From: a virus
Taxonomy: Duplodnaviria; Caudoviricetes
Virus record (IMG/VR): IMGVR_UViG_3300033508_000635
Span: 1-32,846 of that record
DNA: 32,846 nt
Strand: one strand, 5' to 3'
The first letter of the stretch is position 1; the number at the start of each line of letters is the position of its first letter. Positions 17,908 to 32,595 of this stretch are shown piece after piece. Under the pieces are notes generated by a model, which ran no database searches, was not told the origin of the DNA, and was given only the letters and a program-made list of their open reading frames with translations. Made by a program: the position numbers and the translations under genes.

Positions 17908-17981
17908 TTAAACTTTTCTTTAAAAATGTTTGGACTGAATTATATTAGTGCGCTATCTTTGGTGCATTAATAACAACTAAA
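17908..17981 (+). promoter_or_regulatory. Bacteroidota-type promoter cassette, copy A
   Basis: TTTG (17929-17932), 21-nt spacer, TATCTTTG (17954-17961). Near-identical copy at 25496-25571. Confidence 0.85.
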
Positions 17982-17992
17982 AATTTTGACTT

Positions 17993-18277
17993 ATGAAAAC
18001 AACTTACAATCAAATCAAAAAAGCACTCGACACTTTACATTCTCCTGAAGTTATTGCACTTATTGAAAATAATCTACCACTCAATACTGATGTATGCGTG
18101 GAGGATTTAATTGACACTATATCTGAACAAATGCCTAAACTTAAAATAAGGGTGATAATGAGAACCATCAAATTTCAATTAGGATGTGGTGGTTTATGTC
18201 GCACTGCATTGCAACGCGGTTGGTCCATTTCCTATTATAATCGTATGGGTTTTGCATATTATAAACGCACCAATTAA
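17993..18277 (+). CDS. Hypothetical 94-aa protein (moron)
   Basis: ATG directly behind promoter A and followed by a terminator. Confidence 0.75.
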   Translation: MKTTYNQIKKALDTLHSPEVIALIENNLPLNTDVCVEDLIDTISEQMPKLKIRVIMRTIKFQLGCGGLCRTALQRGWSISYYNRMGFAYYKRTN

Positions 18278-18291
18278 TTAAACCAAAAAAT

Positions 18292-18315
18292 AAAAGGTCC
18301 TCCGGGACCTTTTTT
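18292..18315 (+). terminator. Intrinsic terminator (probably bidirectional)
   Basis: AAAAGGTCC-TCCG-GGACCTTTTTT. Confidence 0.8.
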
Positions 18316-18339
18316 ATTAATCAGATAAAATTTAATACC

Positions 18340-18812: not shown

Positions 18813-21305
18813 TTAATCGGTGAATCCCATGTATTTTTCGAAATAATTGCGTTGTAAAGGGTCTTTTAGTAATAATTCACCATACCAATCAGACCCGAGT
18901 AATGATTTTTTTAAATCTGGATGTTCAGCTAATAAATTCATAGGAAAGTGCGTTTTACCACTATTACTTCTTTTATATGTGGTAAATATATCGAGTGCCT
19001 TTGTTTTTTGAAGACCTTTAAATCTACTCGAAATAAAGTCCTGAGCTTCCTCCATTGTTTGACTGAACCCGTATTTAGCCCACGCATACCCTCCCACATC
19101 AATATTTGCGTGCACTTTAATTTTTTGCACCTTAGCTGTTTTATATTGCTTATACAAGCTTTTAAATACTTTTTTTGATAAGTCTTTACCTTGTAAGTCA
19201 TCACTAATAGTGAATAATGAGTGAGCTACCTGTCGTTCATTATTGGAATCTAAAGTAAAAGCTCGACGTATCAAATATTCAGATTTTTTAACATTACCAC
19301 CTACTGTAAAATTTACCCCGTTAGCTGAACCATTTAAAGTAATAGTACCCACCTTTGGAATCCCTACATCAGTAAAGGTTGAATTTATTTCTTTTACCAA
19401 TGTAGGCATGTCAAAATCACCTAATACGTTATGGTAATACTTATCCATTGACTTACTTATATTAATATCACATCCAGGGTATAAAGTTTTTAATTCAGCG
19501 GTTAATTTTTCAGCTGATTGAAAACGAAATCCTCCTCCTGGTTTTGGTGGTACTTCGTCAAATACTTCAACAACTAAAGTATTCGTTTCTTTATTCACTG
19601 AACGCACTACAAAATTACTATTGCGTCCAAGTAAATATTCTTGTTCTTTATTACCTAAATTAGCTACTTTAGCATTTTTATTGACCAACATTTCAATTTT
19701 AATCCCACTACCTCCAGAGGTCGGAGTTAATTTACCACGAGTATATCCATAATTAGTATAAACCTCACCTACTTGTTTATTCATTAATTGTTGTGCAAAG
19801 TCGCCGTCTATATTTCCATGCAACGTTATATTTTGTTTTGGAGCTCCTTTTTCAATAACCGCGTCGAGTGCTTTAATTTTAGCCTCCATAATTGGGCGTT
19901 CCCGAAAATTATAACCTTCACCACTCTTCGCTATATAATTATCAATTTCGTCAGATACATATTTACGCTTTATGTTGGTAGTCCCTTTATTATAGTCCTG
20001 AAGAACTTTTTGTTCGGCGGGATTTAAGGTTTTAGTAACGCGGATGTTCTCCTTAGCGTAAAATTCGGTAGCCTCCTTGCCTTTTAGTTGGGGATAGTCC
20101 TCCGAATCAATTTTTTTAATCGGTTCTACTTCGGTATTGATTTCTTTTTTAGTTTCTTTTTTAGGCTTGGGTACCTTCTTCGTTTCTTTTTTAGGTGCAA
20201 TTTCTACCGGTGCAGGTTCAACCTTCGGAGCTGGTTGTCTTTGCATCAAATTGTTATTCGATGCAATAAAACGCGGTTGATTAGTCCAATTTTTCCATTT
20301 ATCAGAATTGGTAGTGAGGTATTGTTTATAATTTTCGGGCATGACTTCAACTTCGTTGACCGAGTTTGAAGTAGGGGCACCACCTGACAATATTAAATCA
20401 ATATCCGCGTCGAGTTCTTCGGCGGTCTTCAGTATATTCAAAGACATACATTTACAATTCACATGCCATTTACTACTGAAATCAAAATCCTTAGGGTACT
20501 TGCCCTGCAAACTCTGACAAGAAATACCGCCTTTATCGTCTTCAGTTCTATGTTGAGGACTGACCCTTATTTCGACACCTACTATAAAAGGTTGCTGCTT
20601 TCGTTTTTCTTGTTGACTCTGTTCATAACTAAAATTGATTTCATTTCGAGCTAACCGCAATGCATTTTTATATGAACTTCGATATACGCCTTGTCCCGGG
20701 TGATAAACTTTAGCAGCCTGTGAAAGTCTTAATTCACCATTTGCGTTGCGGACACGACGGAATAATGCGTCAGGATTCTGTAAATACTGTTTCATATTAC
20801 GCGCCATGGTCGACGCAGCCTGTCCCGAACCTATTCCGGTCTCGAGTGCCAACTCCAACTCGGTTTTAAATTGGCTGGTATTATTCCATACTTTATCACT
20901 TAATCCTAATCCCTTTGAATCTTTACGACTAATAAAAGCTTTCAACGCATCGTGGTTATTACTCAAATATTGATTACGCAACTCTTTTGGTATATCATTT
21001 AGTTGGTCACCATAAATAGTTTTGACTAATTCGTTATTTTTTTCAACCGCCAGGTCCCACTCAGACGTAATACCTTCAACCGTAACCCCTAAAACATCAC
21101 CATACAGTTGGTCTATTATTTCGTCGATACTTTTGTTGACTTTCGGGTTATTTCGAAGGAATAAATTACTATTCTTGTCAAGTGATAACTCAGACTTTAA
21201 GTTCATGGACTTAGTAATAGCGGAGTAGTACGCCTTGGCTATACGCGCACTATATCCGGTATTATTTGCAGCATGTTGAGCATCAAAATTACTTTGTGAT
21301 GGCAT
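18813..21305 (-). CDS. MuF (SPP1 gp7-like) minor head protein fused to ART-like and GNAT-like domains
   Basis: Follows the portal gene. MuF motifs RLARNEIN and CQSLQG...WHVNCKC; P/K/E linker; VIP2-like segment ending EQEYLLGRNSNFVV; GNAT-like DDLQGKDLS...ANIDVGGYAWAKYGF. Confidence 0.8.
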   Translation of the reverse strand: MPSQSNFDAQHAANNTGYSARIAKAYYSAITKSMNLKSELSLDKNSNLFLRNNPKVNKSIDEIIDQLYGDVLGVTVEGITSEWDLAVEKNNELVKTIYGDQLNDIPKELRNQYLSNNHDALKAFISRKDSKGLGLSDKVWNNTSQFKTELELALETGIGSGQAASTMARNMKQYLQNPDALFRRVRNANGELRLSQAAKVYHPGQGVYRSSYKNALRLARNEINFSYEQSQQEKRKQQPFIVGVEIRVSPQHRTEDDKGGISCQSLQGKYPKDFDFSSKWHVNCKCMSLNILKTAEELDADIDLILSGGAPTSNSVNEVEVMPENYKQYLTTNSDKWKNWTNQPRFIASNNNLMQRQPAPKVEPAPVEIAPKKETKKVPKPKKETKKEINTEVEPIKKIDSEDYPQLKGKEATEFYAKENIRVTKTLNPAEQKVLQDYNKGTTNIKRKYVSDEIDNYIAKSGEGYNFRERPIMEAKIKALDAVIEKGAPKQNITLHGNIDGDFAQQLMNKQVGEVYTNYGYTRGKLTPTSGGSGIKIEMLVNKNAKVANLGNKEQEYLLGRNSNFVVRSVNKETNTLVVEVFDEVPPKPGGGFRFQSAEKLTAELKTLYPGCDINISKSMDKYYHNVLGDFDMPTLVKEINSTFTDVGIPKVGTITLNGSANGVNFTVGGNVKKSEYLIRRAFTLDSNNERQVAHSLFTISDDLQGKDLSKKVFKSLYKQYKTAKVQKIKVHANIDVGGYAWAKYGFSQTMEEAQDFISSRFKGLQKTKALDIFTTYKRSNSGKTHFPMNLLAEHPDLKKSLLGSDWYGELLLKDPLQRNYFEKYMGFTD

Positions 21306-25380: not shown

Positions 25381-25495
25381 TGGTATTATTTATTACTAAA
25401 CAATATACTTGGTACTCATTTAGATTTTTTTGTCTAAATTATAGTATTTGTATTTGGTTGATTTTTACTACTATACTAATTAATTTTACTGAATG

Positions 25496-25571
25496 TTAAA
25501 CTTTTCTTTAAAAAGGTTTGGACTGAATTGTATTTGTTCCTTATCTTTGGTTCGATTTAATAACAACTAAA
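25496..25571 (+). promoter_or_regulatory. Bacteroidota-type promoter cassette, copy B
   Basis: TTTG (25517-25520), 21-nt spacer, TATCTTTG (25542-25549), shared leader TTAATAACAACTAAA. Confidence 0.85.
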
Positions 25572-25583
25572 TTTTTTACGACA

Positions 25584-25868
25584 ATGATTAAATTTAATGG
25601 CACATCACATTTATTAGTGCAAGCTTTCTTAGAAAGCAAACAGAACCAAGAGTTCGAAATTATGGACACCAATTTTTCCGAGGGTATTTATATTTGGACC
25701 GAGTTCAATTTTGTACCGATTAACAGAGCAGCTAAATTGGTTGCAGGTTGGTTAAAAGAATTGTCCGAGTTGGGTGTACAGGTAGATGCTGAATTTTTCC
25801 AATGCACCGACGAAAACCAAGAACCTATTGCTGATGCTTGGAGGGTGATTTTCACAGACGTAAAGTAA
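25584..25868 (+). CDS. Acidic 94-aa early protein
   Basis: First ORF behind promoter B; followed by a terminator. Confidence 0.8.
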   Translation: MIKFNGTSHLLVQAFLESKQNQEFEIMDTNFSEGIYIWTEFNFVPINRAAKLVAGWLKELSELGVQVDAEFFQCTDENQEPIADAWRVIFTDVK

Positions 25869-27014: not shown

Positions 27015-27335
27015 ATGCTGAATATTAAAGTAGGTCAATTAGTGATTATAGTGAGCTATCACGGAGTTCAATCTGTTGAAAAAGTGACCAAAATAGGTAA
27101 GAAATATTTCTATACTACCGGTAATACCAAAGGTGGTGGTCCTTATATCAAATTTAATCGTGAAACCGGTGCAGAATGTTCCGACTATACAAATGGCACC
27201 GCGTATGATAGTACTCAGTCTTTTACTCGAGCTATGCAAACTATCAGAATGCAAAAAGAACTAAAAGATTTCAATTGGAATAAATGCTCCTACGAGCAAT
27301 TAGTAAGTATTAAGTCAATTATAATAAACCTTTAA
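27015..27335 (+). CDS. Hypothetical protein, SH3/KOW-like N-terminus
   Basis: IKVGQLVII...VTKIGKKYFY. Confidence 0.7.
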   Translation: MLNIKVGQLVIIVSYHGVQSVEKVTKIGKKYFYTTGNTKGGGPYIKFNRETGAECSDYTNGTAYDSTQSFTRAMQTIRMQKELKDFNWNKCSYEQLVSIKSIIINL

Positions 27336-27623: not shown

Positions 27624-28181
27624 ATGAAAAAATTAATTATTTTTTTAGTACTGATTCCTTTTTACTCACATGCGTCGATATATGAACGATGTATTCAGCA
27701 TTTAAAAAAATCAGAATCTTTAAAGCTCGAACGATATTTATGTCCGAGTAATGCGGAAACAATCGGCTACGGGCATAAATTAAAACCGAATGAATATTTT
27801 ACCATCATAACGGAGAAAGTCGCGGACAGCTTGCTAAAATCAGATTTTAACGCATGTATTAAATTCATATCTAAAAAGCATCCTACAATAAGTCATCAAA
27901 AAAAATTATCTTTGGCTTGCTTCGTATTCAATTTAGGTGTCGGTGCATATTTAAAAAGTAGTATCTATACTAAAGTTCTGAATAACGAACCTATTGTCGA
28001 TAAATTATTGGAGTATCAGTATTATACCAGTCATGGTAAAAAGATAAAGTCTACACATTTATTGAAGTCCCGCATGTTTGAGGCTTCAATATTTATAGAA
28101 TCTGTGCAGAAAGTACAAAAAAATAGAAAAACCTTTAAAAAAACCGAATATGTTGAAAATTATTATTATGGTACCGGTTGA
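27624..28181 (+). CDS. GH24 phage lysozyme with N-terminal signal sequence
   Basis: E31-X8-C40-X5-T46 triad, TIGYGH, FVFNLGVG; N-terminus MKKLIIFLVLIPFYSHA. Confidence 0.88.
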   Translation: MKKLIIFLVLIPFYSHASIYERCIQHLKKSESLKLERYLCPSNAETIGYGHKLKPNEYFTIITEKVADSLLKSDFNACIKFISKKHPTISHQKKLSLACFVFNLGVGAYLKSSIYTKVLNNEPIVDKLLEYQYYTSHGKKIKSTHLLKSRMFEASIFIESVQKVQKNRKTFKKTEYVENYYYGTG

Positions 28182-30133: not shown

Positions 30134-31024
30134 ATGGATATTATTTCGTTATATAAAGATTATAATGTGCACTATGTGACCGAAGGGCATAAACATTGTC
30201 GACCCGGTTGGGTGCAGGTTCCCTGTCCTTTCTGCACCGGTAATCCCGGTTACCACTTGGGCTATGATACCATTTTGGACCGGTATGTTTGTTGGAGGTG
30301 CGGTGGTCATTATCCGCCTAAAGTTATTGCAACTTTATTGACAATTTCGTTTGGTGAAGCAATGAAAGTAATACATACCTATGGTAGTACTATTCGAATT
30401 GAAACCGTTAAAAAAATCGGCAAAAAGATTTTTAAGTTACCTGAAAGTATGATATTACAAAAGAACCATCGTAGCTATTTAGAACAGCGAAATTTCGACC
30501 CAGACAAGTTAATACAAGAATGGAATATTACGGGAACGGGGGTTTATGCCAAAGTAGGTAAAATTGATTATAAACACCGGATTCTGATACCATTTACTTG
30601 GGATGGACAGATTGTATCATTTGATAGTCGTGACATTACTAATCGAGCTAAAAATAAGTATATGGCTTGTGAAGAAGCCCGGGAAATAATACCACATAAA
30701 CATATATTGTATGGTAGATCCGATAAGTGGGGTAGTACCGGTATTTGCGTCGAAGGACCTACGGATGTCTGGAGAATGGGAGTTAACTCGGCCGCAGTAT
30801 CAGGTATTAAATACACTATATATCAAGTACGTTTGCTTGCAAGTTTATTTAAACGAGTGCCCGTTTTATTCGATGGTGGAGAGTCCCAAGCTATTACTCA
30901 GGCGAATAAATTGGTTGCTGATTTGAGGTTTAGAGGAGTAGATTCCTTTCGAGTTGATATAACCGGCGACCCTGGCGGTCTCAGTGAAGAAGAAGCCAAA
31001 TACCTTGTTAAACAATTAGTATAA
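30134..31024 (+). CDS. DnaG-type DNA primase (zinc finger + TOPRIM)
   Basis: CPFC...H...CWRC zinc finger, RILIPF, VEGPTD, VLFD, GDP. Confidence 0.85.
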   Translation: MDIISLYKDYNVHYVTEGHKHCRPGWVQVPCPFCTGNPGYHLGYDTILDRYVCWRCGGHYPPKVIATLLTISFGEAMKVIHTYGSTIRIETVKKIGKKIFKLPESMILQKNHRSYLEQRNFDPDKLIQEWNITGTGVYAKVGKIDYKHRILIPFTWDGQIVSFDSRDITNRAKNKYMACEEAREIIPHKHILYGRSDKWGSTGICVEGPTDVWRMGVNSAAVSGIKYTIYQVRLLASLFKRVPVLFDGGESQAITQANKLVADLRFRGVDSFRVDITGDPGGLSEEEAKYLVKQLV

Positions 31025-31078
31025 AATTTTCATAACATTTTGTAAATATGTATATTTTTTTATTTCGAAAAATTGCCC

Positions 31079-31086
31079 TATCTTTG
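31079..31086 (+). promoter_or_regulatory. Bacteroidota-type -7 box upstream of the initiator leader
   Basis: TATCTTTGCA in the intergenic region. Confidence 0.7.
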
Positions 31087-31099
31087 CAGTCAATAGTTG

Positions 31100-31206
31100 A
31101 AATAAGGCCTATACGAGCAAATGTAAGCCTTATTTTTTGGTTGTTATTAAGTATAAGGGCGTTTGTTGAAGTGATTTGCTCCACTGAGACATTCCGCCCT
31201 TTTTTT
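31100..31206 (+). ncRNA. Structured leader RNA: two hairpins with complementary loops
   Basis: Stems AAATAAGGC/GCCTTATTT and AAGGGCG/CGCCCTT; loops GAGCAAAT (31115-31122) and ATTTGCTC (31174-31181); both followed by T-runs. Confidence 0.7.
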
Positions 31207-31226
31207 ATTCTAAAATTTGAAAACTT

Positions 31227-32081
31227 ATGCAAACTATAAGAATACCCGATGCTATAAACGCGAGTAAAAACAAATCATTTAGTATTGTCCCTACCGATAT
31301 TTTGCGTAACCCTTTAATCAGCGCAAAAGCGAAGACAATAATAAGTATTTTACTATCAAATCAAACCGGTTGGACCTCGTATATTGATTCACTAAAGCAA
31401 ATGATGCTCGAAAAAAAAGACAGTATTCAGGGAGCATTACGCGAATTGGAAACTCTCGGTTATCTGAAACGCATTAAATACCGAGACCACGAGAGTAAGA
31501 AATGGAAAGGTAGTTTTTGGGCTTATACTGATTCACCTAATAAGTTCGATATAACAGAACAAATTGATTTCTTAAAAAAGCAAAATATGGAAGTTATTTG
31601 TTTTAATGAAAGTACCGAAGGAAAAACCATAACCGGATTTCCCATAGCTGGCTTTCCCAGAGCTGGGAAATCGGCCTCTAATAATATTAATAATAAAAAT
31701 AAATCAAAAATAAATAAATCAATTTCGTGCGGAGCAGACAAAAAAATCAGAAACAATCACTTTGATTTATTTTGGAAATTATACCCAAAAAAAGTGAATA
31801 AAGGGTACGCCCTGACCACTTGGAATAAATTAACCACTAAAAAAGATGCTCCCACATGGAAACAAATTTACATTGCAATTAAAGAACAAAAAGACTCAGG
31901 ACAATGGCAAAATCCCAAATTTATACCACACCCGTCGAGTTGGTTAAATAATTTAGGCTGGTTGAACGATGCAAGTCAAATGTTAGGTGAATATAGAACC
32001 GAAACAAAAAAAATAGGTAACACAATAGGAACAAGTATAGACTACGCAAAATATGAACAGAAGCTCGTTGTGGGATACTGA
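31227..32081 (+). CDS. Phage replication initiator
   Basis: N-terminal wHTH (FSIVPTDILRNPLISAKAK...ALRELETLGYL), repeat linker, C-terminal FDLFWKLYPKK...FIPHPSSWLN. Confidence 0.85.
   Translation: MQTIRIPDAINASKNKSFSIVPTDILRNPLISAKAKTIISILLSNQTGWTSYIDSLKQMMLEKKDSIQGALRELETLGYLKRIKYRDHESKKWKGSFWAYTDSPNKFDITEQIDFLKKQNMEVICFNESTEGKTITGFPIAGFPRAGKSASNNINNKNKSKINKSISCGADKKIRNNHFDLFWKLYPKKVNKGYALTTWNKLTTKKDAPTWKQIYIAIKEQKDSGQWQNPKFIPHPSSWLNNLGWLNDASQMLGEYRTETKKIGNTIGTSIDYAKYEQKLVVGY
31623..31724. other. Putative replication origin inside the initiator gene
   Basis: Three repeats at 15-nt period (core CCAtAgCtGG), the palindrome TTTCCCAG-AG-CTGGGAAA, then an almost pure A/T tract. Confidence 0.65.
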
Positions 32082-32595
32082 GAAGTCTCCCGAAGTACTT
32101 AAAAAAGTACCGTTACGCATATCCACTTTTTTATCTGATTTCAAAGTGAATGAAGAAAATGTAGGAAGTGCTTATTTATTTGGTGGTGCTCGAACCGGGA
32201 AGTCGGTTGAGGCAGTGCGAAAATTATTACGTTGGCATAAATACCAATTTATTAACCGGTTAAATTATTCATTTGAGTACATAAATATTCCAACTTTATT
32301 GTCTCACTTGCGCACCAATTTACATAACGAAAGTTCGATAATTGAACAATACCAAAAATGTAAGCTTTTAGTATTGGACGATTTCGGTGCGGAAAAAATG
32401 ACCGACTGGTCGTACCAGGTCTTGTACTTAATAATTTCGTACCGATATGACGAAATGCTACCAACTATTTATACTTCGAATTTAAACCTACAAGAATTGG
32501 CTAATAAATTGGAGGATGACAGGTTGCCGAGTAGAATCTTACAAGACTGTGGACCAAATATTTTTAAATTCGAGAATAGTCCATATTTCAAGTAA
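32053..32595 (+). CDS. DnaC/IstB-like AAA+ helicase loader
   Basis: GGARTGKS, LLVLDDFGAE, YRYDEMLPTIYTSN, RLPSRI. Confidence 0.9.
   Translation: MNRSSLWDTEKSPEVLKKVPLRISTFLSDFKVNEENVGSAYLFGGARTGKSVEAVRKLLRWHKYQFINRLNYSFEYINIPTLLSHLRTNLHNESSIIEQYQKCKLLVLDDFGAEKMTDWSYQVLYLIISYRYDEMLPTIYTSNLNLQELANKLEDDRLPSRILQDCGPNIFKFENSPYFK

Follow-up and report, generated by a model that had tools for sequence, protein, structure and literature searches.

The window analysed here, i.e. the whole stretch of 32,846 bases, is a single virus record from an uncultured tailed phage and represents an incomplete genome (a fragment). Its minus strand carries the terminase, portal, head and tail genes, and its plus strand carries genes for a helicase, a primase, an initiator and a DnaC-like loader. 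The leader of interest occupies the 202-nt gap between the end of the DNA primase gene (30134..31024, plus strand; phrog_47, E 9.5e-26) at 31024 and the start at 31227 of the gene for a phage replication initiator (31227..32081, plus strand), a 284-aa protein with an HTH_36-like N-terminus that matches replication-initiator PHROGs (phrog_270, E 5e-24). The DnaC-like helicase loader (32053..32595, plus strand; phrog_50, E 5.9e-33) is likely co-transcribed with the initiator. Elsewhere in the window, the minus strand at 18813-21305 encodes a minor head (MuF-like) protein of 830 aa that carries a long extension, and one of its matching PHROGs is labelled ADP-ribosyltransferase, the matched stretch overlapping the head-morphogenesis part. 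A phage lysozyme with a hydrophobic N-terminus (27624-28181, plus strand) lies among the early genes, directly before a SNF2-type helicase.

The leader is preceded by a Bacteroidota-type -7 promoter box, TATCTTTG (31079..31086, plus strand), which fits the -7 element TANNTTTG, with no clear -33 TTTG. By the consensus and position numbering given in the available part of PMC6847099, transcription is predicted to start near 31091. The box is followed by two hairpins, as the initial annotation had described. A simple promoter and terminator scan flagged neither the TATCTTTG box nor the hairpin-2 terminator, because it was limited to sigma-70 boxes and to loops no longer than 8 nt. At 17910-17995 and 25495-25586 there are two Bacteroidota-type promoters, near-identical to each other and followed by leaders (TTTG, approximately 20 nt, TATCTTTG); one stands at the head of the early gene cluster, and the other lies upstream of a lone 94-aa plus-strand gene within the minus-strand head-gene cluster, this gene being followed by a terminator-like hairpin (18287-18323).

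Hairpin 1 (31099..31136, plus strand; fold prediction) presents the 5' pairing word GAGCAAAT in its loop (31115..31122, plus strand) and is unusually strong for the family defined below, at -12.3 kcal/mol vs a mean of -4.4 kcal/mol. The loop word is present as originally annotated, but the TAC/GTA inner stem drawn beneath it ranks second: a slipped TATA/TGTA register, in which one base of the loop is hidden, is 0.6 kcal/mol more stable (pair probabilities of 0.41 for TAC/GTA and 0.55 for the slipped register). A U-rich tract (31130..31138, plus strand; 8 of 9 T) and a U/A-rich linker (31137..31154, plus strand), the length of which varies widely among relatives, lead to hairpin 2 (31155..31201, plus strand), predicted from its fold to be an intrinsic terminator. 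It has a GC-rich basal stem, a tandem GA/GA internal loop (31168-69 / 31186-87, plus strand) where most relatives have AGTA/GAA, an inner AGTG/CACT stem and loop 2, ATTTGCTC (31174..31181, plus strand), and is followed by a U7 tract (31200..31206, plus strand); a U-tract at this place is conserved in relatives. Both hairpins thus carry the U-tracts ascribed to them. The initiator ATG at 31227 is 25 nt past the hairpin-2 stem, and these 25 nt lie outside both hairpins. Forbidding the basal pairs of hairpin 2 costs 12 kcal/mol and leaves both arms unpaired, with no alternative antiterminator helix appearing in this nested-structure prediction; as no mutually exclusive helix is predicted, the word 'switch' in the initial annotation is therefore inferential.

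Loops 1 and 2 are exact reverse complements over 8 nt, which confirms the central observation of that annotation, and the word and its reverse complement have one occurrence each, i.e. only two in total, in the whole (incomplete) window. The 8-bp loop-loop duplex is valued at -8.3 kcal/mol. The chance of a complement to loop 2 of 8 nt or longer anywhere in the 110 nt upstream is 0.003, and the chance of loop 1 being exactly that complement is approximately 2.5e-5 from composition. Further, none of 200 shuffles of the leader region folds as well as the actual sequence (z -3.16).

Conservation of the loop pairing in related leaders

To place the leader among relatives, loci encoding initiator homologues (28 of 49 aligned) were fetched from three collections. 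This resulted in 242 loci, 211 of them with at least 200 nt upstream of the initiator and 163 non-redundant including the window. A blind finder identified hairpins with a U-rich tail near the ATG and sought the complement of each loop in the same leader's upstream 110 nt; as a control, upstream regions were permuted among leaders 20,000 times. A motif-first set was chosen by hairpin-2 motif, not protein, and comprised 46 loci, 24 of them non-redundant (five of which repeat contigs of the first set) and 23 with enough flank. For anatomical comparisons, 35 of the 45 positive leaders were kept and 10 were set aside on visual inspection, either because the words were AT-rich and probably due to chance or because the layout differed; one more (L211) was later dropped, and the remaining 34 together with 12 motif-first elements make up a set of 46. 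As full-length MAFFT alignment left the words out of register, pseudoknot pairs were tested by permutation and not by column counts. Four leaders (L161, L194, L165 and L127) contain long-range pairings of another layout, between their 5' end and their 3' part, and were excluded from later counts.

A terminator-like hairpin was found in 60 of the 163 non-redundant initiator leaders and was absent in 103. Within these 60 leaders, the hairpin loop had a complement of at least 6 nt in its own upstream region in 45 (permutation mean 5.8, maximum 16), and one of at least 7 nt in 23 (permutation mean 1.5, maximum 9). The motif-first set behaved similarly, with a complement in 16/23 leaders against a mean of 2.6. 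An AGTA/GAA internal loop occurs in hairpin 2 of 31/46 elements, which from its consensus we take to be a loop-E or sarcin-ricin type motif. The geometry of this motif class is covered in the available part of PMC2879506. A structure-only scan of all fetched loci returned 38 distinct loop-E hairpins, for 37 of which there is a complement of at least 6 nt, a result that shows coupling and not frequency given that these loci are enriched for the family. Loss of loop complementarity in homologues had been named beforehand as an outcome that would refute the proposal; complementarity is instead retained (23/60 and 16/23 leaders, 37/38 loop-E hairpins), which supports a real loop-loop pairing in the initiator leader.

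The letters of the words are free to change. Paired words are distinct in 45 of 46 elements, only 41/2070 ordered cross-pairs among these elements match over 6 nt or more, and in 31/35 the flanks are more paired than the word itself. Between the closely similar leaders L291 and L390 there are two compensated word/loop changes, while their basal and inner stems are identical; words are identical in all 21 leader pairs that are at least 0.89 identical upstream, these pairs not being independent. In L291 (1874-2008) and L390, the complement reaches into the inner stem of hairpin 2 and an extra stem-loop stands in the long linker. Hairpin 2 shows two-sided changes at 14/14 pairs, in a structure derived from the same alignment, with a covariation score of 0.709 vs 0.269 when shuffled and at most 0.323 when slid. 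This covariation and the conserved U-tract bear out the description of hairpin 2 as a terminator-like hairpin. Its basal stem varies freely among relatives, and its sequence conservation is concentrated in the internal loop and inner stem. The U-tract after hairpin 1 is not conserved across the 46 elements: the T count in the best 9 nt has a median of 4, and the window, with 8, has the highest value. A terminator at this position is therefore at most a feature of this phage, for which the U-rich tract makes it possible, and the short terminated hairpin-1 transcript put forward in the initial annotation is not supported as a family mechanism.

The surroundings of the element are also conserved. 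In positive leaders the distance from the end of hairpin 2 to the start codon is 8-50 nt, and a promoter-like box stands 20-45 nt before the word in relatives. A relaxed -7 box was found 12-48 nt before the word in 27/34 elements vs 5/34 control windows further upstream, and a strict box in 10 vs 3 of the same 34. The genes downstream of 15 elements comprise eight that are initiator- or loader-like, one helicase, two methyltransferases and four without a family. Each of five near-complete genomes, three of which are represented in the model training set, contained one match to hairpin 2, and there was no second copy of the element in these five carriers. Among five primase-anchored loci, two were read by eye as carrying it: in L446, with a primase 62% identical, the element precedes a related initiator, and L445 has a loop-E hairpin with a weaker match in the same gap; the other three lack the element. 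As the hairpin is missing from 103/163 leaders and the element from 3/5 primase relatives, it is dispensable for the gene module. There were no cultured carriers found in INPHARED, and Cellulophaga phage phi39:1 has a related initiator with no intergenic leader.

There does not appear to be an antisense RNA signal in the family, with an antisense -7 box in 6/34 elements vs 7/34 control regions, nor, in a sequence test, is there an antisense box downstream of loop 2 in the window. A minus-strand box at 31117-25 was considered as an antisense promoter and judged incidental, as it lies inside the variable word and has no family signal. A leader peptide was likewise considered and rejected: 13/34 elements have an ATG with a median of 26 vs 4.5 codons, in a comparison whose control is biased by ATGA overlap, and with a within-sequence control the frame is open in 9/17 cases vs 9.0 expected (p 0.61). 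The window has no ATG before the word. A subgroup of six leaders (L170, L184, L186, L206, L392 and L152) has an ATG 3-5 nt before the word and a frame open across the linker, which is the only open frame in three cases; the whole set shows no such signal. A 63-codon open frame in the window (31048-31239, plus strand) spans the leader: its ATG precedes the promoter box and its stop lies shortly after the start of the initiator gene, the chance of such a frame being 0.067. In L372 and L377, near 1201, the same GGAGTAGGTG...CACCGAAAC hairpin without an upstream complement is present, at a site that by eye resembles an intron-type insertion and has no Rfam match at gathering score.

The window itself reads as a divergent, atypical example of this loop-E kissing-leader family. 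A model built from 33 relatives matched the window's hairpin 2 with an E of 0.76, ranking second of 14 weak matches, and aligned only the basal stem, as a generic terminator. Given this value and the lack of AGTA/GAA, the family tie of the window rests on position and architecture: it shows the promoter box, the hairpin-1 word, the complementary loop on a terminator-like hairpin and the replication gene, with box-to-word (36 nt) and word-to-hairpin (32 nt) spacings that are both within the family range. A scan of viral contigs for the window-type hairpin-2 pattern returned 33 loci, none with the architecture, and an exact-word scan of viral contigs for both loops with a 30-60 nt gap returned 121 loci that were treated as chance, none of them, by design, with a loop-E hairpin required for later counts. 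A close relative is the contig that encodes P0002, which is 82% identical.

Possible modes of action

The reading we favour, at somewhat better than even probability, is that the stretch comprises the predicted promoter of a phage replication operon together with its 5' leader and contains a cis-acting pseudoknot attenuator, a structure that would likely govern the frequency of read-through into the replication genes. Transcription from near 31091 would yield a leader with both hairpins, and loop 1 would capture loop 2 on emergence, approximately 20 nt before the terminator stem could close; in stepwise folding, the 8-bp loop helix is marginally favoured already when loop 2 emerges. The resulting loop-loop pseudoknot would tune read-through of the predicted terminator before the initiator gene. 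As the pseudoknot is compatible with the terminator and no competing antiterminator helix is predicted, it would act either through folding kinetics or by providing a binding site for a protein, RNA polymerase or another. There is a slight lean towards pairing that favours read-through. The early region encodes a phage ProQ C-terminal-like domain protein (27015-27335, plus strand; PF24203, E 1.5e-10), a possible candidate for an RNA-binding partner of the leader.

A consideration against attenuation is that hairpin 2 is so near the ATG that translation could be its target instead. The pseudoknot could then operate after transcription, setting translation initiation of the initiator or mRNA stability, with the U-tract serving as a ribosomal-protein-S1-type landing site or as a leaky terminator unaffected by pairing. 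The short distance from hairpin 2 to the start codon throughout the positive leaders is consistent with this, as is the use in Bacteroidota initiation of low structure and upstream adenines, not a Shine-Dalgarno sequence, in the part of PMC6847099 available. However, the 25 nt before the window's ATG belong to neither hairpin, which leaves the pseudoknot no occluded start region to release, and a GC-rich stem with directly adjoining conserved U residues fits a terminator better; we regard post-transcriptional action as rather improbable. Somewhat less probable again is a put-like element, i.e. a two-hairpin RNA that binds RNA polymerase and makes it resist this and later terminators of the early operon. 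A promoter-proximal two-hairpin RNA heading a phage replication operon does resemble HK022 putL (PMC9378689, available part), and conservation concentrated in the internal loop and inner stem would suit a bound RNA of this kind. The same part of that source, however, describes HK022 put as a V-shaped RNA with a triplex and without a loop-loop helix; in addition, the leader has no Rfam similarity and the window lacks the conserved internal-loop motif.

The strongest competitor to the cis-acting attenuator, although we consider it unlikely, is address-coded control in trans, in which terminated leader RNA pairs with nascent leaders carrying the same word for copy-number control or same-type exclusion; in this phage the acting RNA could be the approximately 45-nt hairpin-1 transcript. 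The near absence of cross-matching among 45 distinct words, the word change between L291 and L390 with unchanged stems, and the strong hairpin 1 of the window with its 8 T in 9 nt are all points in its favour. Were the word an identity code, which we think similarly doubtful, the terminated leader, or in this phage a dedicated hairpin-1 RNA with a terminator of its own, would shut off or dose initiator synthesis by loop-to-loop pairing with same-word nascent leaders, and in Bacteroidota-type phages a word of 6-9 nt would define incompatibility groups by RNA alone, without an antisense gene or repressor. However, the words are unchanged in the 21 near-identical leader pairs and the basal stem also varies freely, and neutral compensated drift therefore suffices to account for word diversity. 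The lack of a conserved U-tract after hairpin 1, the single copy per genome and the expectation that intramolecular pairing should outcompete pairing in trans also argue against it. Integrase and resolvase counts in carrier records are a further point against it, and weaken the immunity role initially suggested: a tyrosine integrase was found in 3/20 carrier records (1/4 among records at least 90% complete) and a resolvase in 0/5. Lastly, the window's loop match could have arisen by chance beside an ordinary terminator. Hairpin 2 of the window goes unrecognised by the model built from relatives, and no near-identical leader was found to show covariation of the GA/GA variant; on the other side, the chance estimates are 0.003 or lower, the leader shares the primase-initiator position of L446, and its spacings lie within the family range; coincidence is the least probable of these explanations.

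Novelty and comparison with known systems

The Infernal search suggested by the initial annotation matched no family: with Rfam 15 at gathering score there were no matches in the window, the best E in 31000-31300 being 1.8. In two sets of related loci (20 and 19), the sole match was an unrelated one to a permuted tmRNA gene (RF04321), at L157:771-1000 in a related phage. Full-text literature searches, which leave subscription journals largely outside, and the available part of PMC5737381 contained no description of such an element. Among the freshwater phage candidate RNAs of Fremin 2023 (PMC10690425), the available part includes four unnamed ones (DNAVirus_1270, _187, _4859 and _704) that lie within 25 bp upstream of HTH_36, Phg_2220_C, DUF1376, DUF4373 or methyltransferase genes, are listed as non-terminators and are not described in the main text. 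Their gene context is like that of the kissing-leader family, with which they may overlap.

Taken together, sequence comparison points to a real, uncatalogued and widespread cis-regulatory leader RNA architecture with a strongly supported pseudoknot, the function of which we infer. Its pairing is kept while its letters are free, and it would represent a case in which the loop of a terminator serves to regulate it, with neither an antiterminator helix nor an antisense gene involved. To our knowledge, control of replication genes in Bacteroidota phages is poorly described. The 45 natural word pairs, mostly non-cross-reacting, offer a matched and mismatched panel for separating cis from trans action, and are possibly orthogonal RNA parts for Bacteroidota.

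Control by RNA pairing is known from several plasmids and phages: in repZ control the pairing partner is the strand hiding the ribosome-binding site, the pT181 attenuator needs an antisense RNA and a terminator/antiterminator alternative, and P1 C4 RNA is named beside P4 CI RNA as a comparable pairing-based control. The rep leaders of I-complex plasmids (ColIb-P9 repZ, IncB and IncK; RNAI/Inc RNA) share with the present element a loop-mediated RNA pairing before an initiator gene, and a few loop letters could set specificity there (PMC10724649, available part). Both involve a pseudoknot from a leader stem-loop, predicted and covarying here, but I-complex control has an antisense RNA and a coupled leader peptide, of which there is no signal here, and the pairing partner in the present phage leader, unlike in the plasmid repZ, is the loop of a terminator-like hairpin. 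The pT181 attenuator also links RNA pairing to a terminator upstream of rep (title cited in PMC10724649), but its antisense RNA and antiterminator alternative were not found here (34 elements; window fold prediction). HK022 putRNA likewise consists of two stem-loops just after an early phage promoter and acts on termination without a dedicated protein, but as described in the available part of PMC9378689 it has neither a loop-loop helix nor a terminator hairpin of its own at the end, and no sequence similarity to it was found. Phage P4 CI (seqA/seqB/seqC) resembles the element in placing short complementary words in a phage replication-operon leader, with pairing tied to premature termination (PMC4825925, available part). 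However, P4 CI, which is processed, pairs with two targets that flank it, in contrast to one word and one target here, and unlike P4 CI and P1 C4 the present leader has no Rfam match at gathering threshold and most of its carriers show no integrase. Judged by analogy, the element, although it shows none of the signals that define them (antisense RNA, leader peptide, second target), would appear to function most like the I-complex plasmid rep leaders and P4 CI.
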